Shown: positions 1 through 54,320 of the stretch, one piece after another | Layout: every line of letters starts with the position of its first letter | Position numbering within the stretch: position 1 is the first letter of the stretch | Notes under the pieces: generated by a model | Database searches by the model: none | What the model saw: only the letters and a program-made list of their open reading frames with translations | What the model was told of the DNA's origin: nothing | Made by a program: the position numbers and the translations under genes | UHGV virus genome: UHGV-0210098 | From: a virus | DNA: 64,000 nucleotides | Strand: one strand, 5' to 3'

Positions 1-387
1 ATGACAGGACAAGAACTAAGGGAGAAACTATTGATGGCAAATGTGCCATTCAATGAGATAGCAGAGAGGTTGGGCATTACTGCTCAATCTCTAAATTCGT
101 ATTTCAAAGGAAAAGATGTGCGCTCAAATACCATTGAGCGCATTGCAGAAGTTATCGGCGTAAATATGTCGTTCTTCTATCCAACGGAGAGCGGAAATGT
201 AGTTGCATCGGGTAATGGTAGCGTTGCAGTAACAGGTAACAACAATGTCGCCGGTAATGTTACTATGGGGGACAATGCAGCCGTCCTCTCCGAAAGGGTA
301 AAATCCTTGGAAGCACTTATCGAAGAAAAAAATGAACGCATCGGAGAGTTGAAAGAACGCATTGAAGAATTGAAAGGACAGAAATGA
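1..387 (+). CDS. XRE/Cro-C1-type helix-turn-helix transcriptional regulator with a C-terminal coiled coil (ERIGELKERIEELK). It may be 5'-partial because it begins at nt 1.
   Basis: HTH signature AERLGITAQSLNSYFKG...SNTIERIAEVIG in the translation; stop overlaps the next ORF (ATGA at 384-387). Confidence 0.6.
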   Translation: MTGQELREKLLMANVPFNEIAERLGITAQSLNSYFKGKDVRSNTIERIAEVIGVNMSFFYPTESGNVVASGNGSVAVTGNNNVAGNVTMGDNAAVLSERVKSLEALIEEKNERIGELKERIEELKGQK

Positions 388-686
388 TTGGATTTGGTAT
401 TGCTGGATTGATTGTTGCATTCATTGTGTTTGCAGAACTTTATTCTATCAATAACATGATGAGGCATCACTTCTGTAGAGTAGAGAAAATCCAAGAATTA
501 GAAAGACATCTGCGCGGCACTAAATATGATATGAGTGAACAAAATGATGCTCTCAAAGATTTGATAGCGATTTTAGAACACAATCAAAACGAACTTACAC
601 AAGACGAGCATGAAATTTTGAACCACGCTAAGTACATTGCAAGCAAGATAGGCCGACCGCAAGAAAACGCGATAAATCAATTTTGA
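384..686 (+). CDS. Small membrane protein of unknown function.
   Basis: ATG at 384 coupled to the upstream stop. The N-terminus is a hydrophobic helix (IGFGIAGLIVAFIVFAELY). Confidence 0.4.
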   Translation: MIGFGIAGLIVAFIVFAELYSINNMMRHHFCRVEKIQELERHLRGTKYDMSEQNDALKDLIAILEHNQNELTQDEHEILNHAKYIASKIGRPQENAINQF

Positions 687-781
687 ATGTCGAAATGATA
701 AATCCTACCACCAAGACAGAGAAAGTCGCTCAGAGTGGCAGGAAACGGCCAAATAAAGTATAAACAGGAATAGGCACTAAA

Positions 782-1027
782 ATGATAGACCAAGAAACAT
801 TGAATAAGATGGCTGCAGGAATAAATTCTGTTCCGTGTCCGTTATGCGGAGGCTCTCACCGCGTGAATCTCTCGTTGTACGAAACCCACTCCTTTGCCCA
901 ATCCTCGGCAGATTGGTTGATAATGCCGTCAGGAAGCAAGGTCTTTGTGGAGGTAGAGGACGGAGCGTGTGACGGTTTCCGCAAGCGTTTAGCAAGTTTT
1001 CTCGCCGACAAACTATTCTTCATGTGA
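782..1027 (+). CDS. Hypothetical protein with a CPLCGG motif.
   Basis: ATG-initiated 81-aa ORF with no recognisable family. Confidence 0.3.
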   Translation: MIDQETLNKMAAGINSVPCPLCGGSHRVNLSLYETHSFAQSSADWLIMPSGSKVFVEVEDGACDGFRKRLASFLADKLFFM

Positions 1028-1091
1028 TATTTCTGTTTCATGCAGCAAAGGTAAATGGATAGTGTGAACAGAAAACTATAAGTTTTGAATT

Positions 1092-1439
1092 ATGAACGGA
1101 GAATTTCAATACAACGAAACAACCACGCTGATGGACGAACTTAAAGCCGCAGCATTTGAGTATTTGCTACTCAATCCCGGCTCCGAGTTTGGAGATTGGC
1201 AGCAAGGATTGATAGAGCAATACCCCACGGAAGTTGTCGATGCACTCGGCAGCAACCCCGAGGAGGTATTTGCAGACCTCGCCGACCTGTGGGAGACTGA
1301 CTACAAAGACCCAAAGACCGGCATGGAGCAGAAGCTAAGCGAGTGGGCTATGTCATTCGCAAACGAGTATTCCGTAGGCGTTTACTACTTTCTTGTAGAC
1401 GCTTGCACAAAAATAAAAGAGCATGAGAAAAACGAGTGA
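1092..1439 (+). CDS. Hypothetical acidic protein.
   Basis: ATG-initiated 115-aa ORF followed by a strong hairpin (1548-1585) and a T-run. Confidence 0.4.
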   Translation: MNGEFQYNETTTLMDELKAAAFEYLLLNPGSEFGDWQQGLIEQYPTEVVDALGSNPEEVFADLADLWETDYKDPKTGMEQKLSEWAMSFANEYSVGVYYFLVDACTKIKEHEKNE

Positions 1440-1443
1440 TGTC

Positions 1444-1700
1444 AGATTGTTGTCCGCAAATCGCCAAGTGACTATCGACAAGGAATTCATAACCCGGGCG
1501 CAGGCTGCCATCGAATAACAGGCGATAGAACCTTATAAATAGTCACTTAGGCGATAAGTTCTCTAAATCAGAGGCTTATCGCCTAAAGTATTTTTAAGGG
1601 GTTTGCTCATTTGAACACGATAGTGTGTACCAATGAAACAAAATGTTGTCCAAAATCCGCACCATTTTCGCAGGGCTGTTGTCCGCGTGTTGTCCACTCG
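1444..1700. promoter_or_regulatory. Integrase-upstream regulatory region carrying four direct copies of TGTTGTCC (1448, 1644, 1677, 1688). Two copies extend to TGTTGTCCnnAAATCcGC.
   Basis: Repeats read directly in the 300-nt non-coding stretch immediately 5' of the integrase start at 1740. Confidence 0.35.
1548..1585. terminator. Stem-loop, likely a terminator of the leftmost rightward genes or an operator. Stem taggcgataag/cttatcgccta (11 bp perfect) plus ctct/agag, followed by tattttt.
   Basis: Perfect inverted repeat read directly at 1548-1558 and 1575-1585. A third partial copy, aggcgatagaa, lies at 1521-1531. Confidence 0.4.
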
Positions 1701-1739
1701 TAAAACTCTGATATACACAACAAAAAGATATAATTTGAT

Positions 1740-3227
1740 ATGGCTACATTCAAAGCAGTGGTAAGACGGCCTCGCTCGGATGGCTTTTACTCGGTCTACA
1801 TCCGTGTTACACACCGCCGTCAGACCCTTTTCATCAAGACCGACAAGATGCTTACCAAACGTGAACTGACACGCAATGGCGAGATTTCGGACGCTTATGT
1901 CCTGCAATTCTGTACGCAGAAAATCCTCGAATACCAGGAGCGACTGAATCGGCACGACATATCGCAGTGGACAGGTGCTAAGGTTGTGGAGTTCCTCACT
2001 ACCCCGGAGGAAGTCATGCCGTTCTCGGACTATGCGAGGAAGCACATCGACCGCATGATTGACCGTGGGCAGGAGCGCAACGCCAAGAACTACTTGCTTG
2101 CCCTGCAACACATGGAGCGTTACTTTGGGACAACACAGGTGAAGTTCGCACAACTGACCTCGGTAAACGTGAACAAGTGGATTGCCACTCTCGAAAAGAC
2201 AGCGAGAGCCAAGGAAATGTACCCGGTGTGCATCCGTCAGATATTCCGTGCAGCCATTGATGAACTGAACGACTACGACAACGGCATCATCATGGTAAAG
2301 ACCAATCCGTGGGGAAAGGTGAAGATACCTGCTGCAGACCGGCCAAACAAGAAAGCAATCACCGCTGAGGCTTGCCGGGAGTTCTTCTCGGCACCGCTGC
2401 CACCTACACGAATGATTGATCCATTGCCGGAGTTAGGCCGTGATGTGGCCATGATGTCCTTGTGCTTGGCCGGCATGAACACAATCGACATATTCAACCT
2501 GCGGAAACAGGACTACCACGGCGGCATCATCCACTACAAGCGAGCCAAGACCACCAAGAGTAGAACCGATGAGGCTTACATCGAAATGCGAGTGCCGGAG
2601 GTCATAAAGCCACTGTTTGAGAAATACAAGGCCGGTGACCACACAGACCGCCTTTTCCGTTTCTGTGACCGCTTCTCAACATCTGACAGCTTTTGCGCCA
2701 ACGCCAACACAGGCATCAAGCAAATATGCAAGTCTATGGGAATGCCCAAAGAAGAATGGTACTGCGTCTACACATTCCGGCATACATGGGCGACAACTGC
2801 TCAGAACGATTGCGGCGCAACTCTGGCCGAGGTAGGCTTTGCCATGAACCACTCCCACCGCTACACCGTGACACGCGGATATGTGCAGCTCGATTTCTCC
2901 CCGGCATGGAGGCTCAACGAAAAAGTGATTGACTTTATCCTGTTCAGTGATGCGACCTCGAGGCGCATGGAGCATGAACAGCAGGAGGACGAGGGATTGT
3001 TCCGCCTGTCGCCGAAGATGCTCATCCGCGCGGCGGCTTTCTTTCAAGGAAAATGCCTCGCCAACTTTGAGGACATCGGCTATTCCAACATCGAGGAGGT
3101 TACAAAGGCTCTTGTCGTTCATTTCCATGCCGACATTCCAAACCGCTCAATGGTGCAGTTCAAAATCGTAAACTGCGACAACGGCAAGGTCTACATCTAC
3201 GAACACCAAAAGGGCAAAGGGTTTTAA
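1740..3227 (+). CDS. int: Tyrosine site-specific integrase (phage integrase family) with an N-terminal arm-type DNA-binding domain.
   Basis: The N-terminus MATFKAVVRRPRSDGFYSVYIRV is typical of Bacteroidales integrases. C-terminal catalytic residues are present: ...R...HTWATT...H..RYTVTRGYVQLD (R-H-R-Y). Confidence 0.9.
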   Translation: MATFKAVVRRPRSDGFYSVYIRVTHRRQTLFIKTDKMLTKRELTRNGEISDAYVLQFCTQKILEYQERLNRHDISQWTGAKVVEFLTTPEEVMPFSDYARKHIDRMIDRGQERNAKNYLLALQHMERYFGTTQVKFAQLTSVNVNKWIATLEKTARAKEMYPVCIRQIFRAAIDELNDYDNGIIMVKTNPWGKVKIPAADRPNKKAITAEACREFFSAPLPPTRMIDPLPELGRDVAMMSLCLAGMNTIDIFNLRKQDYHGGIIHYKRAKTTKSRTDEAYIEMRVPEVIKPLFEKYKAGDHTDRLFRFCDRFSTSDSFCANANTGIKQICKSMGMPKEEWYCVYTFRHTWATTAQNDCGATLAEVGFAMNHSHRYTVTRGYVQLDFSPAWRLNEKVIDFILFSDATSRRMEHEQQEDEGLFRLSPKMLIRAAAFFQGKCLANFEDIGYSNIEEVTKALVVHFHADIPNRSMVQFKIVNCDNGKVYIYEHQKGKGF

Positions 3228-3735
3228 TGTAACTGACAATGTGTCAAGTCGAGCGAAACATTTGTCGGAGCTTCTTCCAAAATGTTTTCAATGTCCTTGT
3301 CGCATAGATTTTCCTCAACGACAATGGTCACGGTTGTACGACCTCGCAGTGCTGCTTTTGCCAAATTGCGAAGTTGTGTAACACTGAATGGCATTGACGG
3401 TACTTTAACCGCGCGCTACCGGCCTCAAGCAATTCTGAGATTTTGTTTTTATTCATCGCGATATAATTTTGAAATTTCAACGGCAAAGGTAAGCCACGTT
3501 CTCGGCTTTTTAACTTTGTCTTTTGAGCCTCGTCATATCTGGCGTGGCTCTTTCTTTTTGCGACGGGCTTTTTTTCCTTCTCCACTACTTGCCAAAAGGC
3601 GAAGCCTCAAAAAAGAAAATTCTCCCTCGCGTGTGTGTGTACGCGCGCGCTTCGTCGCAGAGTAATAAATTTATTTATTACGATATATTTTATTTTTAGA
3701 AATACGTTAGTATTTCTTTTTATCAAAAGAAAGGT

Positions 3736-4060
3736 TTCGGAAGAAATGTCATTTTCTTCGGAAGTTTGGGTAAGAAATAGCGATAACTTCCGAAAGAATG
3801 GCAATAACTTCGGAAGAAATAGGCATAACTTCGGAAGTTATTGCAATAAATGGGGAAGGAATTTTGCTCCAAAAACACCCGAAAAGTGCCATTTTTGAGG
3901 GGTATTTTGCCCCACTATTTTTCATGTTTTTCAAGTAAAATTTCAAAAGGGGAATTTATGCCCATTATTTCGGAAGAAATGGGAATAACTTCGGAAGAAA
4001 TACCCTTTTCTTCGGAAGAAATAATAATTATTGGGAAAGAATACCTCCAAACTTCGGAAG
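3736..4060. repeat. Array of nine copies of TTCGGAAG (consensus ATAACTTCGGAAGAAATA), one in inverted orientation (3787-3794). It contains a perfect 19-bp palindrome AATAACTTCGGAAGTTATT at 3823-3841. Best read as arm-type or operator sites, i.e. an attP or immunity-control candidate.
   Basis: Copies read at 3736, 3757, 3787 (inverted), 3809, 3830, 3969, 3990, 4011 and 4053. The region 3228-4170 has no convincing ORF and is AT-rich. Confidence 0.7.
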
Positions 4061-4173
4061 AAATACCCATTATTGGGGAAGAAATAGGTATAAATGGGGA
4101 AACAATTCCGGGAATGAAAAAGCCGAGCGAAATGCCCGGCTGTTGGTCTAAATGTAGAAGAAAATAGACGGCG

Positions 4174-4575
4174 TTAGTTGTCGTTTTCGGCGGCGAGTTG
4201 TTTCAGTCGCTCCTCTATTGTGGTGGTGACATCGCCCGATACCGACACCTCGGCGGATACAGACTGCATCTGCGGCGTGTGGTAACGTAGCAGCTTCTCC
4301 TGTATGGCCGCTCTGTCTTTGGCTTCCATCTGCATCATGTCGATTTCAAAATCAGAAATGATGAGCGGTTTGCCGTCCGGGTCGCTCAACGTAACGGTAT
4401 TGTAGAGATTTCCGTCCTTGTCGCGAAATTCCAACGTGCGAGGGCTTCCGTCTATATTAGTCTGTGGCTTCGCCTCAAAGTATGACATAGACTGAGCGCG
4501 AAGATGCTCCTTGAGCGGATTGGGTTTGTTTGGAGTGCCTTTTTGTCGGCCTCCTGTTTTTCGTCCTTGTGCCAT
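4174..4575 (-). CDS. Hypothetical protein with a basic, AT-hook-like N-terminus (GRKTGGRQKGTPNK); a possible DNA-binding regulator.
   Basis: The ORF-track start at 4584 is TTG. The first in-frame ATG is at 4575 (MAQGRKTGG...). An imperfect hairpin lies at 4120-4150 just downstream on the minus strand. Confidence 0.45.
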   Translation of the reverse strand: MAQGRKTGGRQKGTPNKPNPLKEHLRAQSMSYFEAKPQTNIDGSPRTLEFRDKDGNLYNTVTLSDPDGKPLIISDFEIDMMQMEAKDRAAIQEKLLRYHTPQMQSVSAEVSVSGDVTTTIEERLKQLAAENDN

Positions 4576-4615
4576 GTAATCCAAAAGTTAAAGATGTGAT
4601 GCAAAGGTAGGTGTT

Positions 4616-4623
4616 TACCTTTG
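4616..4623 (+). promoter_or_regulatory. Candidate Bacteroidetes sigma-AB -7 box (TAccTTTG, matching TAnnTTTG) about 35 nt upstream of the first gene of the long rightward operon.
   Basis: Motif read directly. No clean -33 TTTG at canonical spacing. Confidence 0.3.
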
Positions 4624-4657
4624 CTCAATAATTATAACTTTTTAATCACATCAAGAC

Positions 4658-5155
4658 ATGGGCATATTAGGCAGTGCAATAGGTGGCGCATTGGGCATCG
4701 GAGGAAGCATCTTCGGTGGCATCAGTGCTTCAAAGGCGATGAAGAAAGCCAAGAGGATTGTTGAAGGAGAGATGAAAGACAATCAGAATTGGTATGACCG
4801 CCGCTATAACGAGGACGCTACACAACGTGCAGACGCACAACGCATCCTCACAATGACAAATGACAATATCCGGCAACGAAACCAACAGGCAGCAGGAGCG
4901 CAAGCCGTTATGGGAGGCACGGATGAGAGTGTGGCAGCGACAAAAGCGGCAAATAATCAAGCAATTGCTGATGCTACATCGCAAATTGCTGTCAATGGTG
5001 AACGCCGCAAAGACCAAATCGAAAGTCAATATATGCAGACGAAGTCCGACCTCAACGAGAAACTGAGAAACATTGAGATAGGTAAAGCAAATGCCGTCAG
5101 TCAAGCAGTGCAAGGTGTCGCACAGGCAGGTTCTAACATGGCAGGATTATTCTAA
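4658..5155 (+). CDS. Hypothetical protein with an N-terminal glycine-zipper hydrophobic segment (GILGSAIGGALGIGGSIFGGISA).
   Basis: ATG-initiated 165-aa ORF and first gene of the rightward block. Confidence 0.5.
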   Translation: MGILGSAIGGALGIGGSIFGGISASKAMKKAKRIVEGEMKDNQNWYDRRYNEDATQRADAQRILTMTNDNIRQRNQQAAGAQAVMGGTDESVAATKAANNQAIADATSQIAVNGERRKDQIESQYMQTKSDLNEKLRNIEIGKANAVSQAVQGVAQAGSNMAGLF

Positions 5156-5168
5156 AACATTACACACA

Positions 5169-6380
5169 ATGATAGATCCAAATAAACCAATCATAGATCC
5201 ACGGACAACAGTCGTAGACGGAACTACACCGCCTACTACTGTTACTCCTACAGGTGGAACTACTCCACCGGCCACAACACCCGACAATGTTGTGCGCAGG
5301 GACGATACGCAGCCGGTTGTTCCAAGTGGAGGCTCGACAACGACCACAACAAAGACAACCACTTCTGTCCCTATATCCACCTCCATACCTGCTGAATATA
5401 CCGCGAGTAGTTATGAAGAACTTATACCGCAGCTTGAAAAACGTATGGCCGAGTATAAGCCGTTGTCTGAGGAGGAACTGAAAAAGTTACGCCGCAGACA
5501 AAAGGCCGAGGGCATTATCAGCGGCATATCTGACGCTGTTCAATCAGTTGCAAACCTTGTCTTTACCCACAACTATGCACCTAACATGTACAACCCCAAA
5601 GAGGGTATGTCAGCCAAGACAAAAGAACGGTTTGACAAAGAAAAAGCGCAACGAGAGGCTGACGCAGACAAATACCTCAACTATGCGCTTACAATCGGCA
5701 AGATGAAAGATGCCGACAAACAGAGAGGATTACAGGCATGGCAGACAGAACAGACCCTTGCCCGACAAGACCGCGCATTTGACGCAGGTAGAAAAGACCG
5801 TGAAGATGATGTCGCATTCCGCAACAAGGACTATGACGAGCGTGTTCGTCAGTGGCAAGCCAACTTCGACCGTCAAGGTGAATGGCACAAGGAAGAGGGT
5901 CAGCGTTGGGAGCGTCAGTTTAAGGAGAGCGTTCGTCAGTTCAATGTAAGTTCTTCACTTGAACGGCAACGCATCAACATCGCAGCTCAACAAGCCGCCC
6001 ACGCCATGCAGCAGGGTCAGATGACATTCAATCTCGGCTCCGGCAATGGCAATGTTACTCTGACTATGGACAAACTCAATGCGGAGACCGTTTCGCGCAT
6101 CTTTCACACGCTTCCTGAAAGTGCATTATATGAAAATGTAGAAATTAAAGATAAAGACGGCAATGTCACAGGGTACAGAAAAGAACCTAAGGTCAAGGGC
6201 GACCCGATTGTGCGGGATGGCTTTATCGTTGGCCACAAAGAGCCGACAACAGAGGCCATGCTTATAGCCATCGGTGCAAATGTGGAAAATTCTCCTGCGA
6301 CACAGAAGGCAATCAGGCAGGTTGCAGGTTTGGAGAAAGGCGACAAAACGGGAGATAATACAATGCCAGGAGTAAAGTAA
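5169..6380 (+). CDS. Hypothetical protein with a Thr/Pro-rich low-complexity N-terminal linker followed by a charged helical region.
   Basis: The in-frame ATG at 5169 avoids overlap with the upstream gene; the alternative ATG at 5091 overlaps by 65 nt. Confidence 0.5.
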   Translation: MIDPNKPIIDPRTTVVDGTTPPTTVTPTGGTTPPATTPDNVVRRDDTQPVVPSGGSTTTTTKTTTSVPISTSIPAEYTASSYEELIPQLEKRMAEYKPLSEEELKKLRRRQKAEGIISGISDAVQSVANLVFTHNYAPNMYNPKEGMSAKTKERFDKEKAQREADADKYLNYALTIGKMKDADKQRGLQAWQTEQTLARQDRAFDAGRKDREDDVAFRNKDYDERVRQWQANFDRQGEWHKEEGQRWERQFKESVRQFNVSSSLERQRINIAAQQAAHAMQQGQMTFNLGSGNGNVTLTMDKLNAETVSRIFHTLPESALYENVEIKDKDGNVTGYRKEPKVKGDPIVRDGFIVGHKEPTTEAMLIAIGANVENSPATQKAIRQVAGLEKGDKTGDNTMPGVK

Positions 6381-6391
6381 AAGACAAGATT

Positions 6392-9300
6392 ATGACGAAC
6401 CCTATAAATGAAAGTACAAAGTGGCTTTACGGAAAACTCACAGGATTAGGTTATAATGTGGGCAAGGATGTCAATGAGTTTGACAACCTTATACGCACAA
6501 ATGCAGAATCGCGCCAATGGGCGTATGATACGGCAAGGAAGAACGGTCTCAACGTGGGCAAAGATATGGACGAGTTTTCCTCGCTGGTTGGTGGTACAGT
6601 TGCCCCTCCTGCCACTGCGCAAGCGCAACCACAACAGACACCGGCCACAGCCTCAACCGTGAAACCGATAACTGATAATACCGCACAGCAAGCAACCGTA
6701 CAACCTGCACAGGCACAAGGTCAGAAACTCACTCCCATGCAGCAAATGGGCTTTCAGATGCAGATTGACGGCATGAACGCTCGCATGAAGCAGCAGAAAG
6801 AGCAGTTTGACCAACGCATGGAGGGCATAAAGAAAGGTAATAAGCCCGGTGCATTCATGGGCGAGCGTGAGTTCAACCCGACAACCGGCAAGATGGAAAC
6901 CAACTACTACACTACGCAGGGTGAACGTGTTGGCTCTATGTTTGAACAGAGCCAACGCAACACAGAATACAATCAGTGGTGGGAAAACAACACCGAGGAC
7001 GGAAAACGGCACAAGGAACAGAGGCTGCAACGCGAGTTTGACGAGCGTTTGGCCACTCTATGGCAGCGTCATAACCCAACAGAGGGAGAAAACGCAGCAG
7101 AACAGGCATGGTCAGCAGCAGAGGCACGGCAGAAGGAGGCGGCGAACCGCATCGCGAGTGAGATTTACAGAGACCGAGGCGACGTCATGAGTAATGCCGC
7201 ATTTCTTGGTGGACACGAGAACCACATCATGAATGCGGCAATGAACACCCACCGTAAACAAGTGGCTCACTACACCAACTTCGACCTCGACCGTCTGATG
7301 AATGACTCGTGGGACAATCTTGGAGAGGCAGGACAGAAAGCACTTATTGACGACTGTTATAAGATGCTCCGCTACCGCAATCCGGGATTGGATGAACTTG
7401 TGTTGTATAATCAAGCCAAACAGTTTGCTCGTCAGCAGTCAGACCTCAGACTTTATAACCTTGCTGTTGAGAAAAACCTGCCCAAGGGTAATCTTGAGTA
7501 TCTCATGCGCAAGATTGGCGACATGAATATGATTGCCAATATATCCAAAGGTATTGCAGTATCATCTGCCAACGGAAAGACCGGCGACATGGCCGCATAC
7601 GAAGCCGCCAACGAACAATACAGACAGGACGGCCACAAGATACTTGATGTAACCGGCACCGTTGCCGGATTTGCCCTCGACCCCACTACATGGCTGTCGG
7701 CAGGTGTCGGCAGTGCCGCAACAAAGGGCGCGATGTGGGCAGGTGGCCGTTATCTCGCAGGACGAGGAGCAACAGCAGCAGTTACCAATGCCGCCACTCG
7801 TCAATTTGCCACCTCCATGACCGGGCGCATTGTCGGTGGTGTGGTCGGCGGTGCTGCCAACTTCGGCACATTTGAAGGTGTCAAGGAAATGGAAAACCAA
7901 TTTGCCCACGGTGGCCATGTCGTAGGACAGGACGAAACCGGCAAATACATCAACGAGGGATATTCCGCCGGGGCAGTGGCCGGGCAGTTTGGTCATGGTC
8001 TGTTGATGGGTGGTGCCATTGGTTGGCTTGGCCCCGTGTCGGGCAATGTTTCCGACAAACTCGTCAGAGGAACATCAAGCACAGTTGGCAAGGTTGCTAC
8101 TCGCGCAGGTGTCTATACAGGCGCAACTATGGCCGAGGGTACAATCTTCTCCGTTCCCGAATGGATAGAGGGCGACCGTGACGGCTTTGACGTGTGGACT
8201 GACAACATGGCCATGATGGTAGGTTTCAAGGCCAAACACATATTAAAGAGTGCCGGTGGTGTTCTCGGCGACCTCAAAGCATCATTTGACAGCCCTGCCA
8301 ACGGAGCAAAGAACCGCCTCGACTTTGAGAGTAGACTGCGTATGCGCATGGATACTCCTTCAGACGGCGGCATGGCACTGACAAAGGACGAGGAGGCCGA
8401 ACTGAAGCGTTATGGTTACGACCTGCGCGACCTTGTGGAGAGTGCCGAGCGCACCGGCGATGCTTCCGAGGGAAACATCATTGCAAAGGACGCCCCCGAA
8501 ATCGTTAGCCGACTGACAGACATGGTAACAGACCCACGTGTCAGTGAGGCAGCGAGAGCCAAGATGTATTACTATGCCACTGGCCGCAAACTTCCGATGT
8601 CCACCATTATGAAAGGTGAACTCTATGAGGACGGAAAGGGAGGATTTATCGTGGAGTCGCAGGGTGCAAATGGCGTGATAACCTCTCGCTCATTCAAGAA
8701 CCGCAAGGAGGCCGACCTTGAATTGCAGCGCATCAACCGTCAGACCGAACTCAACAGCATAGAAATTGGCGAGCGTTATCAGCAGACAACCGACTTCGAA
8801 AACCGTTTACAGGAGGCTTGCCGCACCGTTGCATCTGAAAACGGTTGGGACATGGTGGAGGTTTACCGTACCTGCGAAGAAGCACGGCGGAATTACCTCC
8901 GTGGCGGCGACAAGCAATTTGACGAGGCACAGCAGAACATCCTCCGCAAGGTAACGGATGCAATGGGCGAATTTGAGGAAACCGGCGCAACCGATGCCAT
9001 GCGTGGCCGCATCAACGAGAAATACGGCGTGGATATTGACGCAGCAATCCGTAAGGAGGCCAACCGCCGCACACAGGCCGAGCAGACTGCCATAGACGAG
9101 TATATAGATGAACTTATCCCCGACAAAGCAAAAGACCGTCCTGTTGAGGATGCAGATGTTGAGGACATCACCAATCAGAAGAGTTTGCCCGGCGGCGAGG
9201 AAACTTTTGATGATGAATTTGGTAACGAACCTATCGACCCTCGCTTTGACGGTGGAGAGGTTGCGCTCGACTACGACCCTCATCAGCCCGGTGGTGAGCA

Positions 9301-29272: not shown

Positions 29273-31437
29273 AACGAAGCCGCCGACACTACTTTTGGGA
29301 CATATTTGAGATTGCTACTGCCGCGAGTTACGACTTGCGGCAGTTCCATTTCACGGAAACAGATATGCAGACCAATGGCTCGTGTCATTAACAAGTCGTC
29401 ATGTTTTCCTGTGATAGCACCGTATGCACCGTTTTGTTTCCTCTCATAGCATAAATACTCGTCAAGACATCGTCCGTCACGTTCGATATAACTTCCCTCA
29501 CGGATAACTTTAACGAGGGTAGAGATAACCATTGGCTTTGTGCTGACATTAGTATGAAAGCCATAGTTGAGAGGCAACCCTTCGAGAATTGCTTCTTCGG
29601 ATTGTTTTCTTGCATAGAGATTGGGATATACGTCCTTAATCTGATTTAATATGTAATGCGATTGGTCTCCGTCTACTTGACGTTCCCTATCGTGTGTCTC
29701 AAGAGTATTGCTCTCAATAACGAGTTTAGAGCAATCATAGAATGCTGCTATTTGAGCAGCTTTCCATGCCAACAAGTCCATATCAATGTGACCATACCAT
29801 TGAGCCACGACAGACGGTTTTCCTCCGTCCATCATCAGCAGACGGTCGAATACGACAATTACGGACCAGTCCGCTTTATTTGAGCGTCCTCCGACATCGA
29901 CAACCGTAAGGTAGCGGTTTATTACTTCTTCAGTATCGTTAGGGTTTACCTGGTCGGGCAAGTTCCATACCCATAGCATACCTTGTGAGTCTGCCTTAAA
30001 GCGCAGGTCTCGTAATGCATCCTCTCCCTCGTCACCGTAAGCATATACATCACCTATGTAACGTGGAGTCCTACATGTGTTCCGCAACTTGTGTACATTA
30101 TATTTATCGAACACACGTGCTCCCGAATTAACAAACGCCTCCACATCGTCAGACGGGAACTCTGCGGCAATTAACCCATGCTCTGTGTACTTCTTTCGTT
30201 CATTGATGTACCAATGAATAGCCTCTAATGTGGCACCAATTTGCCACAAATACCAAAGGTACTTTCCACTTTCCTCTCTATTAGATGTTACATTCTCGTT
30301 GTTCCTGTTGTTATATAAATTAGCTGCAAACTCTTCTACATTATCTATCGGCAAAGAATACTGTTCGATGTCGAACCATGAAACGAACATCGCCTCAAAT
30401 TGCGATTTCTCCTCCTTTGCATCATCGTATTCCTTTTGGAAGAAGTTACCTGTACCATTGGCCGTACTCTCATACACAATCATCGTATATGGTTTGTACA
30501 AAACTCCTGAACAAGCAGAGCGTACAATGTCCTCCGGCTTCTTTCCGTCAGTGACTTTCCATAGTCCAACCTCAGAAAGGTGTACGAGATTATAGTCTCC
30601 ACCACGACAACTATCCGGGCGTTCAGCAGTACCAATTTTAATTTTGCAATTTCGTTGAGGTACACGATGAATGCTTCCCGATTTACCAACGCCAACTAAT
30701 TTTGGCTCGTTCTCATTATATGTTTCTCCTATCTCATGGAGCATTTCGACAGGGTAAGCCTTAATCATACGGTCGAACATATCCTTTATCTCGTCCGAAC
30801 CAGAGCCTTGATGTGCAATAATAAGGGAGTTTAAGCCTACTTTGTGCATCAACTGCAACCACGCCATATAGATTTGTGACGTGGTAGAACCACCCCATTG
30901 ACGTGCTTTTAACAAGATAAGACGTATAGGCTTACCAGCCTTTCTCAACCGTTCTAATCTTTCCACAAACCTACGTTGTGGTCTTGTCAGTCGGAATAAT
31001 ACATCTTCTCCACCTCCCTTATTCTTAATGAAAACGTATAAAGCAGCCCAAAATGCAAAGTCATATTTACAGCGTAATCGGACAAACTGCTTAATAACCT
31101 TATGCCTGTCAGCATCCCACTCATCTTCATGTTCAAAATAATACTCCTCTGCACTGAACGATTCATCTTCTCCATATTCTTCCTGTTTAATTTGGAACAG
31201 AAATTTATCAATAGAGCCAAGTTCAATTATCGCTCGTACAAGTGGTATTTGAAGCATCTCCACAGGAAGATACTGAACAGAAATCGAAAAATCTCCTATG
31301 ACTACACGCTTCCTTTCTCCAATAGAACCTTCGCCGGTTATTGGATTAAATTTTGCATAGACTTCTGCATTTCGCCTATTATTTTCAGTTAAAATATCAG
31401 AGATTGCGATTTCCTTTGCCGTAGTCATACCACCCAT
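29269..31437 (-). CDS. terL: Terminase large subunit (722 aa).
   Basis: A P-loop-like LKARQWGGSTTSQ preceded by the typical RQ. C-terminal RNase-H-like nuclease acidic motifs are present: VVDVGGRSNKADWSVIVVFD, LVIESNTLE and YGAITGKHDDLLMTRAIGLH. Confidence 0.7.
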   Translation of the reverse strand: MGGMTTAKEIAISDILTENNRRNAEVYAKFNPITGEGSIGERKRVVIGDFSISVQYLPVEMLQIPLVRAIIELGSIDKFLFQIKQEEYGEDESFSAEEYYFEHEDEWDADRHKVIKQFVRLRCKYDFAFWAALYVFIKNKGGGEDVLFRLTRPQRRFVERLERLRKAGKPIRLILLKARQWGGSTTSQIYMAWLQLMHKVGLNSLIIAHQGSGSDEIKDMFDRMIKAYPVEMLHEIGETYNENEPKLVGVGKSGSIHRVPQRNCKIKIGTAERPDSCRGGDYNLVHLSEVGLWKVTDGKKPEDIVRSACSGVLYKPYTMIVYESTANGTGNFFQKEYDDAKEEKSQFEAMFVSWFDIEQYSLPIDNVEEFAANLYNNRNNENVTSNREESGKYLWYLWQIGATLEAIHWYINERKKYTEHGLIAAEFPSDDVEAFVNSGARVFDKYNVHKLRNTCRTPRYIGDVYAYGDEGEDALRDLRFKADSQGMLWVWNLPDQVNPNDTEEVINRYLTVVDVGGRSNKADWSVIVVFDRLLMMDGGKPSVVAQWYGHIDMDLLAWKAAQIAAFYDCSKLVIESNTLETHDRERQVDGDQSHYILNQIKDVYPNLYARKQSEEAILEGLPLNYGFHTNVSTKPMVISTLVKVIREGSYIERDGRCLDEYLCYERKQNGAYGAITGKHDDLLMTRAIGLHICFREMELPQVVTRGSSNLKYVPKVVSAASF

Positions 31438-31828
31438 TTCTTATTTTGAACAACCTCTCAAGTGCTGATGAAGCCTCCATGTAGAATTTTGGTGCAGGAG
31501 AATTAACGACCTTAAAGACCAACTGACACAGATGCCAATCGGGATGTGCCTCCTTCAGTGCAACGACACGGCGATGTATCTCCTCAAACATTTCACGTTT
31601 TGTCGGACGCATTGTTTCCAATACAGGCTTCCCTCGCATGATAGCTGACACGACAGCAGCAGCCCTCTCCTCCGACACCCAAAACCGGGGAGCAGGAGAA
31701 TTTACAATTTTCTCACCAATTTCGTTCAAACGAACAAATTTTACTGCACTTATTTGTTCACGATATGCCTTTAGCAACGCCGCATTTCGCTCGCGAGTAA
31801 AGGACAAGACACTTCCGAAAGACTTCAT
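31397..31828 (-). CDS. Candidate terminase small subunit or DNA-binding packaging protein, with an internal duplication (VNSPAPRFW... and VNSPAPKFY...).
   Basis: ATG at 31828. Overlaps the terL start by 41 nt on the same strand, the classic terS-terL arrangement. Confidence 0.35.
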   Translation of the reverse strand: MKSFGSVLSFTRERNAALLKAYREQISAVKFVRLNEIGEKIVNSPAPRFWVSEERAAAVVSAIMRGKPVLETMRPTKREMFEEIHRRVVALKEAHPDWHLCQLVFKVVNSPAPKFYMEASSALERLFKIRNGWYDYGKGNRNL

Positions 31829-35198: not shown

Positions 35199-35834
35199 AT
35201 GGTATATAACATTCACGATGTAATGCGCGATGTCCGCGTATGCCTCGACCAAAACATGACGAGCGAACAGTTGTTGCAGACTGACGATATAGACACACTT
35301 GCCCTTGATGATATAATCAGAAGCAAGATTTTGGAAGCAGTTGTCAGAGTGCATACCAACGCTCCGACATATCTGTTGGAGCAGGGTCACAACTTCGGCG
35401 ATGCCGTGTATTGGGGTGACCTTGAAAGCGGTTGGGTGTTGTTGCCGCAGGACTTCATGCGCCTAATCGTTTTTGAAATGAGCGATTGGGAGCGAGCTGT
35501 TTTCACGGCCATAAGCACCACCGACCCGGAATATGAGTTGCAGCGTCAGCGCATCAAAGCATTGCGCGGCACCGCACAGAAGCCGGTATGTGTAATCTCA
35601 GTGCGGCCAGAGGGAAGAGCGTTAGAGTTCTACTCATGCAAGAGTGAGAGCGCATACGTTCGCCGTGCGCAATATCTTCCTTACCCGAAGATAGATAAGG
35701 ACGAGGGCATAGACATCTGTGAACGCTGTTATACAGGCGTGGTGTATGCCGCAGCGTCATTAGTATTACTCACATTGGGCGAGGCCGAGAAGTCATCGGC
35801 ACTCTCCGAAATATCTAAAACAGCATTACAATGA
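35199..35834 (+). CDS. Hypothetical structural protein (211 aa).
   Basis: ATG-initiated. The stop overlaps the start of the tail-fibre gene (ATGA at 35831). Confidence 0.45.
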   Translation: MVYNIHDVMRDVRVCLDQNMTSEQLLQTDDIDTLALDDIIRSKILEAVVRVHTNAPTYLLEQGHNFGDAVYWGDLESGWVLLPQDFMRLIVFEMSDWERAVFTAISTTDPEYELQRQRIKALRGTAQKPVCVISVRPEGRALEFYSCKSESAYVRRAQYLPYPKIDKDEGIDICERCYTGVVYAAASLVLLTLGEAEKSSALSEISKTALQ

Positions 35835-38800
35835 GTTCAATTCCAACAAAACAAATAGATGGTGATGTTGCGGTTGGGCGCAATGTGTCAGCCGGAGGCG
35901 ATGCCAACGTACAAGGTAATGCCCGAATAGGCCACGACTTGGTTGTTGAGGGTTGGCTTGAAGCGAAGAACATCAAAGGGGTAAACAAAGGACTGTTTGC
36001 TACCGTTGCTGCTTTGCGCGAAGCTTATCCCCAACCACATGATGGTTGGTTTGCCGGAGTGTCAGCCTCGGATAAGGACATTGCAGACCTCGGACTCACC
36101 GTCCAACAGGGAAAGGCACTGTTCAGAATGTATGTCGGCAGTGGCGGTGATTGGGTGTGCGAACCTATCGACAAACTCTATGAGATTGTAGTGGACAACG
36201 AGCAAGTAGACAACCTCAGAGACGAATTGTCTACCCTGCGCGGCCAGCATGAAAATCTTGAAAAGCGCGTTGATGCCCACGACACCGAAATCAGCGGTAT
36301 CAAGACACAGCAGACCACACTCGGAAACAGCATCAACACCAACACCGGCAACATCGCAACCCTCAAAGTAAGAGTAGACGGCCACGACACATCTATATCG
36401 AAGAACGCAGCCGCAATCAAGGCTATTACTGATAGCATTGGTGCGCCTAATGGTATTGCCCCGATAGATGAGAACGGCCATATTCCAACCCGTTTTATCC
36501 CCGGGGCAATGGATGATGTCAAAGAGTTTGACGGTTTTGTCGAAGTATCTACAATAAATGCCGCTTCATTGACAGGTGAAGTTCTTGTCATGTTCAACAC
36601 CACGTCAAGGACATTTGTTGCGTGTGCCAAGAATACCATACCTCCACAGTATGCCAATAATTGGATAGGAGCAGAAAACTACGGTGACTTTTCTATCAAT
36701 GGCCGTATGCCACAAGATGATAAAGTCTACGTAGACCGTTCTACCAATAAAACCTATCGTTGGAGTGGTAGCCGCATGGCTGTTATCGGCACTGACCTTG
36801 CACTTGGCGAAACCGAGAACACCGCATATCCCGGTAACAAGGGTAAAGCAAATGCAGAAAATATAGCGTTACTCAAAAAGGCATTCTCAATTACCACGTT
36901 TGTAAACATCAACGAATTGTTTGAGAGTACCGGCAGCATGACATTTACGGATGTCGTTACGCTGCTTGACAGCGTAACAGAAGTGATTAAGCCCGGTAGC
37001 GTTGTAACATACCTCGACACGGAAAACGGTTGGAAGTCATTGCAATTTATAGGAAACGACCCCGACAACGGCATAGGTTTCGATGAAAATTGGAAAGCGT
37101 TTGGTAACGGTTCATCTGTAGGAAACTGCTACAATGTAACCGCCGCTCGACTTGCCAACGGTGATGAATTGCCGACCAATCCACCGACATACGACACAAA
37201 GCAGAGTGCCATTGAGTATGCTATTGCTAAGGGAGCAGTCAGCATCGGTGTTCAAATCACTTTTGCAGCAAGTTCCAAAGGTTGGCGAACATTCCAATAT
37301 ATCGGACTTAGCGAAGATGCCGATAGTTATTCCAACCTTGACAATTGGCTTGATGTAGCCGGTCAAAGCGCAGGAGAGGAAACTATACTCAACATCAACG
37401 AACTTTGCAAGGAACAGACAGGAAGTAGCGAATACTCTTTGCTGAGTGCTGTTGCAGCCTTGCTCAAGTTGTGTGAGAGCAAGGGTATTGACTATTTTAA
37501 GGACGGCCTTGTTATTACTTACTGCGTTAATGCCGGTGAACACGTATGGGAAGCAAAGCAACTACTTGACAAGGCAAGTGCCGATAATTCCGAAGCATGG
37601 AAAGATTTCGGTGGTGGTGGCAATGACCTTGAGGCAAACGATGTGCCGACCGAGGGAGGTAAAGACGCATTCAGTACCGGCGGCGCATACGAGCGCATGA
37701 TAGTAGACTTCGAGGAAAGTTTCAGCGAGGACGGTAATTCCAAAACCTATCAGCCTGTAAATGCAAAGAGAAAGCCAATAGGCAGTCCCATTACCGTACC
37801 TCTCGGCGGTGGAGGAGGCAGCACAGATGCAACCTCATTCGCAGTGCGCTTTGAGAGTCAGACAATTTACGGCGCAGCAGGAGGCAAGATAATCGGACGA
37901 TTTGCAGCCCGAAGCGTTACGCGCATGGGCGAGGAAGAAGTCGTAAACAACATTACCGAAATATCAGTCAGTGATGCTAATACCGGCGTATTGCTCAAGA
38001 CAGAAATTCTCACCAACGAGCGCAGTTCTGCCTCACTACAAGATTTCAAGTTCTCAGTAGACTTCACAGATTGGTTTGACGGTGCCGGGCAGCGCAGCTT
38101 CATCGTTGCCGTAAAAGACCAAGAAAGCAACGTGCGCCGTGTTGATGTAAGCGTGAACTGCGTTGATGTTACTGTTGAAATATCCAAGGCACTGAATGAA
38201 TGTCGTATTTCTACCGGTGCAGGTATGACAACTCTTAATAGTTTCTACATCTTTCCGCGCAACACCCTCGGAGGAGCAGGAGGCGGTATAGATGCTATCA
38301 TTGAAATTCTGTGGGATGGAGAATGGAAGGAACTCGGCAGAGCCAACATCCAAAAGACATTCTCGCAGGACATCAGCATAAATCCTACCAACGTACTCGG
38401 CGGCGGCGAAAAAATGCAGCATGGCTCATATTTGCTCCGCATACATGGCTATGCACCACAGGCAAAGGTTACCGGCAACTATGTCTATACCTCAATAATG
38501 TGCATAGATAGTTCTAAGTCCACAGAGCCTATTGTGTCAATCCGATACGATGCAAATACCTATGACGAAGAACTGAATGGCACTGTTGCGCTATACGATA
38601 CAGCCATATTGCAGGTAGCCGCGTACACCGCTGCAAGTATCAGTGGCAATACGCAGGTATCAGTCAAAGCCAACGGAGAAACGATACAGACATTCAATGC
38701 TGCATCTTCCTCAACCTACCAAGTAAAGTATCAAATACAGGGCTATACCAATGGCGACAACATCGAATTTGTTGCAGAAGGAACGTGGACAGAGGCCAAT

Positions 38801-41800
38801 GGTAAGAAACACAGAGGCCAAAGCCACACAATCAATGTTACGGTCGATGGAAGTGCAATAGATGTGCAACTGAAAGGTGGCGCAGCTTTTGCCTACGACT
38901 TCGCACTACGAACCAATGCGGATGTGGACAAGACCATCAAAGACAACAATGTTACGATGTCTGTAACCGGCGCAAATTGGCGTACTAACGGTTTTGTTCA
39001 GTACCTTGGGCAAAATTCTCTGCGCATTGCCGAGAACATGAAAGCCACAATCCCATACTATCCTTACTCCAAGCAGACTAACGAGAGCGCAGGAAACGCT
39101 GTGCAATTTTCCTTTGCCACTGACAATATCAAGGATAAAGACGCCTTGCTCATGCACTGTTACGACCCTGCCACCGGCACCGGCTTCTATGTCAAAGGAA
39201 ACGTGGCCGGCATATATTGCTCTAAAGGTGTAAAACATCAGCGACAGGAGCGCAAGTTCCGAAGCAAGGAGCAAATCACTATGGCAGTAGTTGTAGAACC
39301 TGCGAGCCGGGCATACGAGCGTGGTAATGAAAAATACTCCACCATTAAGATGTACCTCAACGGTGAGGAGGTCGCTTGTTTGGGTTATATACCAGGACAG
39401 AACGCAATCTCGCAGAACAAGCCCATCATGTTTGACGGTACGCAGGGCGACCTGTATCTCTACTACATCATGGCATACGAGAGTTACTATGAGTGGTCGC
39501 AAGCCTTTAACAACTATCTTGCAAAACAAACCAATGTAACTGCAATGATGGCCGAGTTTGAAAGCGAAGATGTGCTTGACACACTAAACCGTCCGAGCCT
39601 CGACAAACTCAAAGCAAAGGGTATGCCGTATTATGTTGTGGTGGCTCCGCAGAAAGTGTTTGATGAATTTGACAGTGATACCAACACGTCTACCAAATTC
39701 ACCTGCACCCTGTTCTACTTCAACCCTCAGCACCCAGAGTTGAACTTCATGGCCACCAACGTACAGTGGCGCAGACAAGGAACTACATCGGCGAAACGAC
39801 CAATTAAAAATGACCGTTTCTATCTCAACAAGCCCGTCAATAAAGCGGACAAGATTGTTATCACGCTGCTCAATCCAAACGAGGACACCGAACTCGGACG
39901 GAAGGCCATTGCACTTGCCGCCAAGAACTATGTACTTGTTCAACCTAATGCAATCCCCGTTCAGATTATTACCGTCAAGGTAGACTTTTCAGACAGCAGC
40001 AACGCAAACGATTGCGGCGTATGCGACATGATGAACAACACGTTTAAGGCAATGGGCAGCGCATATCAGACACCTGCCCAAAGAGCCTATGACGGAACAT
40101 TCACCAAAGGCGACCTGCATATAGAGGGATGTCAAATGGACCACTCGACCAAGAACCATCCTATTGCTGCTTTCCGTGCCACAAACGAACAACTGACAGA
40201 CGCATGGTTTCATGCGAAAGGCAATTGGAAAGAGGATAAGGGAGAACAACTTGCACTCGGTTTCAAAGACACACCCGGCTATAATAAAGGCTGCTTGAAC
40301 TATGGTGATTTCATAGAGTTCTTCGGTAATCGCAATGAAACACTCTCGCAAATTGAGGCACGTTTCAAGACAACAGACGGTTTAGACACAGATAGCATCT
40401 ACCTGTTGAGCCAATACTGCGGTCGTGACTATCTCATCATGCGCCATAATGGTACAGCATGGCAGCGCAGTACCGGCTCAATGAAACAAGTAGGCGGGAA
40501 ATGGGTAGTTACCGGCGATGTCCTTAACCCTGTTACCGGCTTTGAGTTGCTCTCTTATCAAGGTTTCTGCTGGTGGAAAGGAGTATCGAGCGTTGACGAT
40601 ATGATGAAGATGGAGGCCGATAAATCCTCATGGGTTCAGAAACTCGTCAATAGCGGTGATGTGTCTGCCGACACATTCCCGAAGTGGACGCAATACTTTG
40701 AATGCATGGTAGACGACGACCAATTGCAGATTGACCTTGCATACGGTCGCAAAGTTCCATACGAACTTTACAGAATGTTGAGGTTCTGCCACGACTGCGA
40801 CATGATTGCATCCGTAGAAGGTAAAGAAAACCGTTGGCAGATAATCGAGAACACCACAAAGATGGCGAATTGGAGAAACAATCTGTGGCAATACGTATCG
40901 CCGCAGAGCCTGTACGCCTATACATTGTTCACCGATTATCTTGCAGCCACCGACCAACGCGCCAAGAATATGCAGCCTATGTGGTTTTTGGAGGACGGCC
41001 AGAGTGTTACCAACGGTGTCTATTCTGCCGAACACGCCGTGAGAATGTATCTCAACAAGGTATATGACTGCGACACCTGTAACGGCAAGGACAATGACGG
41101 CGGTTGCACCGTAGATCCCGAAGCAGACCCCAACCGCATGACTGACGACAACTATGTCAATCCATACGCAGGTTATGGTTCAATCCTGTTCAACAATGTG
41201 GCCATCGTTCCAACTGTTTATCTTGACGCAACACACAGCGGAAGTCAGCAACTTTCACTCGGAACTGTTGCAGCCGCCATGCGCTCTGCAAAGACCAATG
41301 TGGACGGTGTGGACATGGTGCCGTTCTCCCCGGAGGGCGCACAATACTTCTTCGTTGAAAAGCGTCTGAAGTTTTGGAAGAAACTCATATCGTCCTTTGA
41401 CGGCGAACGTAAGTACATCGAGAGTGTAGGCACGAGTGATGATATTTACTTCTATGCTCTGCAAGGCTTGGGACTTACAGCCCTGCCGCAGTTCATCGAA
41501 CAGCGTTGGCGCATCCGTGACGGTTACTATCAGACCGGCCAATTCTTCAGTGGTGTGTTGAGTGGCCGTACATCATGTGCAAGCAGTAACGCGCGTATCC
41601 GTATCGTTGCCGCAATGACCGGCTATTTCGGTGTAGGCCATGATGCAAGCGGCCAACTTGACGAGGTAGTGTTCCTCGAAGCAGGACAGGAGCATTACTT
41701 TACAAAGTTCAGCCACACAGAGTATGCCTTGCTCTACATCTATCAAGCAGACCGCATCAAAGAGATAGACTTGAGCGAGATAAGCCTTGACAGCAGTTTC

Positions 41801-44167: not shown

Positions 44168-44346
44168 CACGACTGCTCGCCACTCGTCCTTTTCGTTTGG
44201 TGCAGAGCCGTGGGTTTATCCCCGGCTGCTGCACCTTATTTTTCTCGCGAAGCGAGTTTTTTATATTTGTTTCATACGGCAATATGCTGATTTTTCATGA
44301 TATTTTAGTAATTTTGCAGCGGATTTACTCCAAGGCGGAAAACCCT

Positions 44347-44466
44347 CACAGCCGCGTGGTTTTGCGGTCGGGCAACAATTCGAATGCGAATAGCGGCCTC
44401 GCTTATGCGAATGCGAATAACGCTTGCTCGAACTCGAACACGAACTACGGCGCGCGTCTGAACTTA
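44347..44466 (+). repeat. DGR template repeat (TR), rich in AAY codons. It encodes HSRVVLRSGNNSNANSGLAYANANNACSNSNTNYGARLN.
   Basis: Non-coding copy of the VR located between the target gene and the RT. Adenines sit at every VR-variable position. Confidence 0.9.
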
Positions 44467-44611
44467 CTAAGGTTAAAATCGTGTGACCCTGCACGGCAAC
44501 GAGATTGCCAAAGCACTCCTCGAAGGGTTTGAGCCTCGGCAACAGCAATTCTTTTCCAATCTTGAAAACATTGGAGAGTTTTGGAAAGCCGAAAAATGAC
44601 GATAACCTTAA

Positions 44612-44638
44612 TGTGGGGTGTCGCTACGGCGACCCCCA
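44612..44638 (+). other. Stem-loop between the TR and the RT start (GTGGGG-T-GTCGC tacg GCGAC-CCCCAC). A candidate structured element of the DGR RNA.
   Basis: Inverted repeat read directly (6 + 5 bp with a one-nt bulge). Confidence 0.35.
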
Positions 44639-44668
44639 CGGGACCGGAAGGCCATTAAACAATTGACA

Positions 44669-53531: not shown

Positions 53532-53902
53532 AACGAGCTGCGGTATATGATTGTGATGTACTTAATGTTGTCGCGTATAACCTCCATGCCGCAGGGACAA
53601 CGCAAACGAGTTCCCTTTACTTCGGCACCGGAAAGGACAGCCCTTGCCAACTTCTTGGAGCAGGTGCGGAACGTGCCTTTTCCGTGAGCCGTAGCCCATA
53701 CACGTCCTATGTGCCGACCTGTATATTGGCCGGCACGTAGTTTGACATAGAGGTAGAGTTCGCCATACTCATACGCAATGTCTATCACATCGCCAACGGA
53801 CAGTGATAGTTTCCGGGCAACGTGGGCTGATATATCAATCTGGCCGGAGGCATCGAATGATATGTCGTGCTTGCGAGAGTTTGACAATATACTTTTCATC
53901 AT
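53528..53902 (-). CDS. Hypothetical protein (about 124 aa).
   Basis: The track start at 53908 is TTG; ATG at 53902 (MMKSILSN...). Overlaps the start of the 945-aa gene by 4 nt. Confidence 0.4.
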   Translation of the reverse strand: MMKSILSNSRKHDISFDASGQIDISAHVARKLSLSVGDVIDIAYEYGELYLYVKLRAGQYTGRHIGRVWATAHGKGTFRTCSKKLARAVLSGAEVKGTRLRCPCGMEVIRDNIKYITIIYRSSL

Positions 53903-54134: not shown

Positions 54135-54320
54135 TTACGCAACGTTTTTATGATGATGTCTCTCGATTTCTGCACATAGAGCCTCGCACCAGGAGCGAGC
54201 CATATTTACCTCAACTGCATTTCCGATGAATTTCTTTTTGTCGGCCTGTGTACCTATCAGCACATAGTCCTCGGGGAAGCCCATTATCAACTTCAACTCT
54301 GTTTCTTTGAGCATCCGCAT
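54135..54320 (-). pseudogene. C-terminal fragment of a DNA cytosine-5 methyltransferase.
   Basis: ELKLIMGFPEDYVLIGTQADKKKFIGNAVEVNMA is the conserved C5-methyltransferase C-terminal block (motifs IX-X, ...GNAV...). No upstream catalytic-domain ORF exists. Confidence 0.55.

Follow-up and report, generated by a model that had tools for sequence, protein, structure and literature searches.

A 21-bp-phased palindromic repeat array beside the integrase gene as a candidate replication origin of a Bacteroidales phage

It was found that the integrase gene (int, 1740-3227) of a temperate Bacteroidales phage is followed by an array of ~15 palindromic units, which is probably an iteron-type replication origin that was relocated beside int, expanded, and is read by the initiator encoded at 56808-57629. 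From the sequence comparisons described below, the probability of this reading was estimated to be roughly 0.7. The window, i.e. the whole 64-kb stretch of DNA that was analysed, represents the genome of a podovirus-like phage in nearly complete, non-integrated form. A preliminary description of the array had proposed three readings: arm-type sites of the phage attachment site, operators of an immunity region, and an iteron-type origin.

The last reading was supported by the repeats inside the initiator genes of relatives. It draws on the anatomy of the array, the finding that the intragenic repeats have an identical motif and spacing, the complementary distribution of the two arrangements, the association with the type of initiator, and the exclusion of other readers. 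Initiator binding, melting and origin firing at the array are proposed by analogy with known origins.

Anatomy of the array and its flanks

Within 3736-4060, TTCGGAAG occurs nine times, with eight copies on the plus strand and one on the minus strand. The whole 64-kb window contains 15 copies compared with ~2 expected, and none of 100 shuffled sequences reached 15. The period obtained by TRF and repeat finding was 21 bp, and each unit comprised an imperfect 17-bp palindrome, ATWWCTTCnGAAGWWAT, and after it a G/C-rich linker of 4 bp. When degenerate units such as ATTATTGGGGAAGAAAT and ATAAATGGGGAAACAAT were counted, ~15 units were obtained, ~7 in 3731-3862 and ~8 in 3943-4106, with a spacer of ~80 bp between them. 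The 18-mer ATAACTTCGGAAGAAATA was exact at 3804 and 3985 only, and four further copies had 2-3 mismatches. The search of the rest of the genome that had been suggested earlier confined the full 17-bp motif to the array, with no other site in 64 kb. The array thus is a helically phased, multi-copy short motif far above chance, as in iteron origins.

These results modified the preliminary description in several respects. Its count of nine repeats was reproduced, but the array is larger than the interval given for them. The perfect 19-bp palindrome AATAACTTCGGAAGTTATT reported at 3823-3841 has no exact copy; the sequence at 3824-3842 is CATAACTTCGGAAGTTATT, with one mismatch, and the perfect part covers 17 bp (3825-3841). 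Copies were indeed present on both strands (8 versus 1), but their description as half sites was misleading, because every unit is itself an imperfect 17-bp palindrome. The palindromic units are consistent with the dimeric DNA-binding protein that had been expected.

Block 1 (3731-3862) holds ~7 units at 21-bp spacing, the best of which are at 3752-3768, 3783-3799, 3804-3820 and 3825-3841 (perfect), and it ends with a degenerate unit at 3846-3862. At 3760/3770 the register shifts by 10 bp, so that no reading frame continues through the array. In block 2 (3943-4106), 8 units keep strictly to the 21-bp register, at 3943, 3964, 3985, 4006, 4027, 4048, 4069 and 4090. The spacer between the blocks (3863-3942) is rich in A/T tracts and contains a small hairpin, GGGGTATTTTGCCCC, at 3899-3913; it is dispensable, since relatives of the L354 type have a single fused block without it. 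Register shifts, together with deletions in relatives, ruled out the repeats as coding sequence and confirmed that the open reading frame at 3850-4167 is spurious, as suspected before. One frame of the array translates to ITSEEI-like heptads, similar to the ISSEEK linker of the initiators of relatives.

On the int side, the array is preceded by two compositionally distinct elements. The first is a G+C-rich, perfectly alternating pyrimidine/purine tract of 23 bp, CGCGTGTGTGTGTACGCGCGCGC (3628-3650), which is predicted to be Z-DNA-prone and is followed by TTCGTCGC triplets. A counterpart, a (CG/TG)n tract of 20-35 bp with GTC/GAC/GTA triplets, was observed in most of the array-bearing relatives examined, although its sequence drifts. 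Two relatives (L062 and L063) have another G+C-rich stretch in its place, and the alternating tract is missing from relatives without an array. The second is an A+T-rich region resembling a DNA unwinding element (3660-3735) with two perfect inverted repeats, AGAAATAC-GTTA-GTATTTCT at 3698-3717 and TTTCTTTT-TATC-AAAAGAAA at 3713-3732. The G+C content of 3670-3729 is 15% (85% A+T), compared with ~48% in the window, and easy melting of this segment is predicted. Analogous A+T-rich hairpins were present in all motif classes described below. The order of G+C-rich tract, 85% A+T segment and phased repeats is that of iteron origins, in which an A+T-rich segment adjoins the repeats.

The cassette lies between two inward-facing terminators, one a hairpin at 3491-3508 on the plus strand and the other, at 4121-4141 on the minus strand, the intrinsic terminator of the convergent gene at 4174-4575. 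In relatives, equivalent hairpins are located directly 3' of int and of the gene for a 136-aa protein. No Bacteroides promoter box (-7, TAnnTTTG) was found inside the array or the cassette, so that an invertible promoter or a small RNA was rejected for the array; a search of 3200-4700 against Rfam gave no family.

Several other features were observed around the cassette. The gap after int is 946 bp long and, as described before, largely non-coding, but not wholly so: 3224-3457 on the minus strand is a frame-disrupted copy of a small open reading frame of ~75-80 aa, with its own Bacteroides-type promoter TAccTTTG at 3484-3491. This frame is intact, and sometimes duplicated, in relatives (L017, L032 and L033). 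Located between int and the candidate origin, it is optional cargo. A pyrimidine-rich sequence, GGCTCTTTCTTTTTGCGACGGGCTTTTTTTCCTTCTCC (3545-3585), upstream of the Z-DNA-prone tract is conserved in the close relatives L054-L065. On the other side, TCTAAATGTAGAAGAAAATAGA (4147-4168), with an inverted TCTA/TAGA and a third TAGA ~11 bp further on, is situated between the stop codon of the 136-aa gene and its terminator. It is kept in every relative whatever the array class, including the array-less BKO1-TP3 and L240, which suggests a site, or a hairpin in the RNA, connected with the N-terminus GGRQKGTPNK of the 136-aa protein, a sequence that is equally conserved.

Relatives, initiators and intragenic repeats

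A megablast search of positions 1-8000 against GenBank phages gave no match. The cultured relatives in GenBank are the Bacteroides phages BS-TP4 (PQ571277) and BKO1-TP3 (PQ571269), whose genomes are organised like that of the window, whose int is 62-64% identical to its int and which both encode the portal, the large terminase subunit (TerL), the diversity-generating retroelement (DGR) and a giant DarB-like protein. In BS-TP4, the position beside int is occupied by the same array. BKO1-TP3 has no array, and its homologue of the 136-aa gene is separated from int by 151 bp only. The passages on repeats or origins identified in PMC12694917 concern other things than this array, and no relevant description was obtained when the literature was searched for iterons in Bacteroides phages or for DUF4373.

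The exact 18-mer ATAACTTCGGAAGAAATA was present in 20 IMG/VR stretches, 15 of which were homologous arrays at the int-proximal position; two more (L010 and L016) were initiator genes of the Lin1244_N family that encode EITSEEIPISSEEIPISSEK. Integrase-anchored searches of genomes, IMG/VR and metagenomes provided >100 loci. Their conserved order was int, G+C tract, A+T hairpins, repeats, terminator and 136-aa gene, although the repeats themselves fell into at least 11 motif classes, mostly palindromic, examples being TTCSGAAG with or without TGTACA, AGTTATAACT, ATGGCAttTGCCAT, ATGCGttCGCAT, ATCGCAttTGCGAT, ATTATTCSGGAATAAT, AACCCCAAA, TTTGGTTTG and CGCGGAAAC. The copy number ranged from 3 to ~15, and some relatives lacked the cassette altogether. 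Single blocks without spacer were found at 11700-11890 of L354 and 2500-2620 of L331; these look like recombinational deletions between two blocks, implying that the copy number changes easily.

The replication initiator, or replisome organizer, of the window is a 273-aa protein encoded on the minus strand (56808-57629) within the leftward early/replication module at 50.7-64 kb. Its residues 11-103 match Lin1244_N, that is DUF4373 (Pfam, 3e-26), and it matches the PHROG 'replication initiation protein'; PHROG matches to 'replisome organizer' were obtained as well. A DnaC-like helicase loader (55915-56805, minus strand; PHROG 3277/50) follows immediately downstream. The initiator gene contained neither the array motif nor internal repeats, and no other repeat cluster was found in or near the replication module.

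When the array was compared with plasmids (PLSDB) by blastn, the sole match was in a DUF4373 initiator gene on a circular P. distasonis element of 14.6 kb, where two copies of TTATTTCTTCCGAAGAAAAG at a distance of 21 bp are accompanied by degenerate units on their flanks and by an A-rich tract. Similarly, the initiator gene gp19 of BKO1-TP3 contains TTATTTCTTCCGAAGATAAAC and GCATTTCTTCCGAAGAAAAGC with a spacing of 21 bp and, after them, an A-rich tract, whereas the initiator gene gp46 of BS-TP4 has no repeats and its array lies beside int instead. The initiator N-domains of BS-TP4 and BKO1-TP3 are 74% identical, and those of the window and BKO1-TP3 gp19 66%. Among the loci L122-L147, ~12 distinct initiator sequences have TTCSGAA at nt 380/401, and the initiator of L145 has units of the TGTACA type, the second unit type of BS-TP4-like arrays. 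TTCSGAAG repeats thus lie inside the initiator gene in BKO1-TP3, L480, L010, L016 and the loci L122-L147; these intragenic versions comprise 2-5 repeats and an A-rich tract and are located in the linker that follows the DNA-binding domain. As they are also constrained by coding (I-S-S-E-E), the shared DNA could partly reflect a shared peptide.

The distribution of the two arrangements was complementary, with BKO1-TP3 as the one array-less genome with a known initiator. In all nine IMG/VR contigs with an array and a known initiator, as well as in the window and BS-TP4, the initiators were of the shorter FPFDIDFFQD type (248-294 aa) without internal repeats. TTCSGAAG repeats were therefore associated with FPFDIDFFQD-type Lin1244_N initiators in 11 of 11 array-bearing genomes with a known initiator. 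The close relatives L062 and L063, with CGCGGAAAC arrays, were not among the 84 matching stretches of the initiator scan.

The exception to this association was the subfamily of L231, L232 and L330, in which the cassette motif varies (AGTTATAACT, ATGGCAttTGCCAT, ATGCGttCGCAT). The N-domains of the YFSHDS-type initiators of L231 and L232 are ~88% identical, with a KQG-to-RHN cluster at residues 30-32, suggesting that a few residues retarget the initiator or that another factor reads those repeats. Unrelated motifs at the same site, despite int DNA of ~95% identity and such similar N-domains, might mean that the origin acts as a specificity cassette that is hypervariable and can be exchanged, a proposal that we regard as tentative and rather unlikely. 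If it were true, a handful of residues (e.g. 30-32) would retarget a Lin1244_N initiator, or a second reader would exist; the Z-DNA-prone tract and the A+T cruciform would form an obligatory supercoil-sensing origin element, of a kind which to our knowledge is not described for phage origins.

With the array as a relocated iteron origin, replication might start as follows. Each 17-bp palindrome would bind one dimer of the N-terminal Lin1244_N domain of the initiator, and the spacing of 21 bp, two helical turns, would align the ~7-8 dimers of a block along the same face of the helix. The dimers may assemble cooperatively and wrap the DNA, upon which the neighbouring 85% A+T, hairpin-prone segment would melt and the DnaC-like loader would bring the host helicase. 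The origin presumably left the initiator gene and came to lie ~11 kb away beside int, with ~15 sites in two blocks. Because 21 bp corresponds to seven codons as well as to two helical turns, the period fits an origin that was formerly within a reading frame. The GC skew of the window was dominated by transcription direction and was uninformative.

Other parts of the genome were noted during the comparison. The virion genes start from 4658. A 6784-aa protein of the virion module (6392-26746) combines motifs of methyltransferases, SNF2 helicases, JAB/RadC-like proteins and metalloproteases, and the BKO1-TP3 homologue bears the annotation DarB-like antirestriction. The 6784-aa protein is preceded by a T7 gp14-like protein (4658-5155) and a 429-aa protein, a position suggestive of a polyvalent protein that is ejected. 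The portal, TerL and a DGR reverse transcriptase are encoded too. The open reading frame upstream of TerL (31397-31828, minus strand; 143 aa, PHROG 27246) has an internal duplication (…SPAPRFWVSE… / …SPAPKFYME…) and occupies the usual position of the small terminase; in BS-TP4 and BKO1-TP3, its counterpart is separated from TerL by an additional gene. In the DGR (35831-46108), the reverse transcriptase (44618-46108) is downstream of a 2778-aa protein, the homologue of which is named as the DGR target in the BS-TP4 paper (PMC12694917). The 81-aa protein at 48091-48336 matches the Acb2/Tad1 hairpin domain (Pfam, 9.7e-09) and is a candidate anti-CBASS/Thoeris nucleotide sponge.

IMG/VR contig 108962 (L178) is 94-99% identical to the window, but at 1-1090 the HTH regulator and two small open reading frames are swapped for unrelated genes. 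At least eight HTH types, all with the same C-terminal coiled-coil architecture, were found in the phage family, which indicates that the immunity module is exchangeable. In 54135-54722, the 61-aa frame represents no more than the C-terminal part of a C5 cytosine methyltransferase; contig 108962 carries an insertion of 1.6 kb here and has no counterpart of the 237-aa methyltransferase of 54703-55416, so that the methyltransferase content varies between near-identical phages. A tRNA-Gln(ttg) gene (63916-63987, minus strand) overlaps the 5' extension of the longest RecT-family frame (62831-63994), and the true RecT start is therefore probably further downstream.

Other readings of the array

The array might instead be a copy-control, titration or centromere-like locus that is read by the initiator or by another protein and is not a start site, for which P1 incA and sopC are parallels. 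Its ~15 sites compared with 2-5 in the intragenic origins, the second block, the variation in copy number and the presence or absence among relatives would suit such a locus. However, array-bearing phages show no other candidate origin, with a replication module devoid of repeats, and the repeats never occur without the A+T-rich and G+C-rich elements. Pfam and PHROG scans of most predicted genes gave no ParA/ParB or ParR/ParM family, which argues against a centromere. We consider this alternative unlikely, although part of the array may serve in copy control or titration.

Since one frame of the array resembles the ISSEEK linker, the repeats could also be a functionless remnant of the initiator-gene linker, or a selfish simple repeat derived from it. 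This is very unlikely given that the site architecture is conserved over at least 60 loci and at least 11 motif classes, and that palindromic units and flanking elements persist despite complete turnover of the sequence.

A packaging site was considered as well. In the pac sites of SPP1 and P1, two blocks of terminase sites surround the cleavage region, and the two-block layout of the array, its position at the border of the lysogeny and virion modules, and the ends of several IMG/VR contigs nearby would suit a pac/cosB-like site for the small terminase. The repeat motif did not covary with the open reading frame upstream of TerL, which was 87% identical in phages of the L062/L063 type with a different motif but 43% identical in phages with the same motif. 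The inducible phage BKO1-TP3 does without an array, and single-block variants lack the spacer. As contig 108962 ends at attR, prophage trimming explains the contig ends near the array, which were rejected as physical genome termini. Packaging is accordingly an improbable function, about as improbable as that of a mere remnant.

Palindromic units would also suit dimeric regulators, and the genes for the HTH regulator (1-387) and the basic 133-aa protein (4174-4575) both lie less than 4 kb from the array; the preliminary description had proposed that either protein uses it as operators. Covariation contradicted this. Four unrelated HTH recognition regions (those of the window, contig 108962, L155 and L017) occur with the same array, and none of the eight immunity intergenic regions examined contained the motif, which also disposed of the array as a titrator of the repressors of related phages. 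The 133-aa protein is only 33% identical in L001, L004 and L017, where the motif is the same, but 73% identical in L062 and L063 and 92% between L231 and L232, where the motifs differ. In addition, the array lies between convergent genes and overlaps no TAnnTTTG promoter box. Operators for these proteins are thus highly improbable. For the 133-aa protein, neither its AlphaFold model (pLDDT 71) nor its sequence gave a significant match in the PDB.

Further candidate readers failed the covariation test: the 429-aa protein; SNF2, Exo, p401 and RecT (L330 versus L231); and the integrase (L231 versus L232). The 115-aa frame at 1092-1439 was rejected because it is missing from L017. For the AbrB-like protein at 53528-53902, seven loci were found.

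The attachment site was located elsewhere. Phage-host alignment placed the attP core, GCGCAGGCTGCCATCGAA, at 1498-1515 upstream of int, where it rebuilds the 3' end of ppdK, and at 27 prophage loci the host ppdK (pyruvate phosphate dikinase) ends at a junction just upstream of int. These prophages were found in Muribaculaceae, Bacteroides, Phocaeicola and Prevotella, and contig 108962 ends at the corresponding attR. Four arm-type sites, TGTTGTCC (1448, 1644, 1677 and 1688), lie around the core within 200 bp. The arm motif follows the lineage of the integrase, being TGTTGTCC in the window, ATTCAAC in L026 and GGTTTACC in L017, while the TTCGGAAG array is constant. Within prophages the array stays beside int wherever downstream sequence is available. 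A complete attP is thus contained in 1440-1740, together with a hairpin (1546-1574) that probably acts as terminator of ppdK once the phage has integrated.

The idea that the array provides arm-type sites for the SAM-like, arm-binding N-terminal region of the adjoining integrase is therefore scarcely credible: the prophage junctions, which had been named as the check, map to the core, which is separated from the array by int and by a distance of 2.2 kb, beyond the ~200 bp expected of arm sites, a complete arm set is already there, and the arrays of L231 and L232 are unrelated despite int DNA of ~95% identity.

Implications and comparison with known origins

BS-TP4 was detected in 31% of 930 viromes (PMC12694917), and phages of this family are common in the guts of humans and animals. 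No description of an origin of this family was found in the searchable literature. The array would provide a candidate origin paired with a Lin1244_N/DUF4373 initiator, a domain annotated just as 'unknown function / replication initiation', and this protein-DNA pair is directly testable in two cultured sister phages that differ in origin position. It would aid the annotation of Bacteroidales phages and phage-plasmids, offer candidate replicons for Bacteroides genetic tools, and represent a natural system for the evolution of origin specificity and position.

Among known origins, that of phage lambda lies inside gene O, with four dyad sites for O dimers spaced about two turns apart beside an A+T-rich segment. 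The candidate origin shares with it the dyad repeats for an initiator dimer, the spacing of about two turns, the A+T-rich neighbour and the loader gene beside the initiator gene. The likeness extends to position in BKO1-TP3, L122-L147 and L480, which have the repeats within the initiator gene, where they occupy the linker that follows the N-terminal DNA-binding domain. On the other hand, the initiator belongs to the Lin1244_N/DUF4373 fold family instead of that of lambda O, and the origin of the window is located outside the gene, ~11 kb off, with ~15 sites in two blocks compared with four, and with a Z-DNA-prone tract and perfect A+T hairpins in addition.

In the Bacillus phage SPP1, the replisome organizer G38P has oriL inside gene 38 and a distant oriR among late genes. 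The two phages are alike in that a replisome-organizer initiator is followed by a loader and that one cognate origin of repeats plus A+T-rich DNA is remote from the initiator gene. However, SPP1 has both origins in one genome, whereas the intragenic and remote versions described here are in different genomes, and the repeats differ in sequence and structure.

Iteron plasmids (RK2 oriV, P1 oriR/incA, F ori2) carry directional sites for Rep monomers, with rep adjacent. G+C-rich DNA, A+T-rich DNA and phased repeats of 17-22 bp follow in the same order as here, a second cluster is present, and the repeat sequence diversifies between related replicons. In contrast to these plasmids, the array consists of palindromic units, has no rep gene adjacent, and belongs to an integrating phage.
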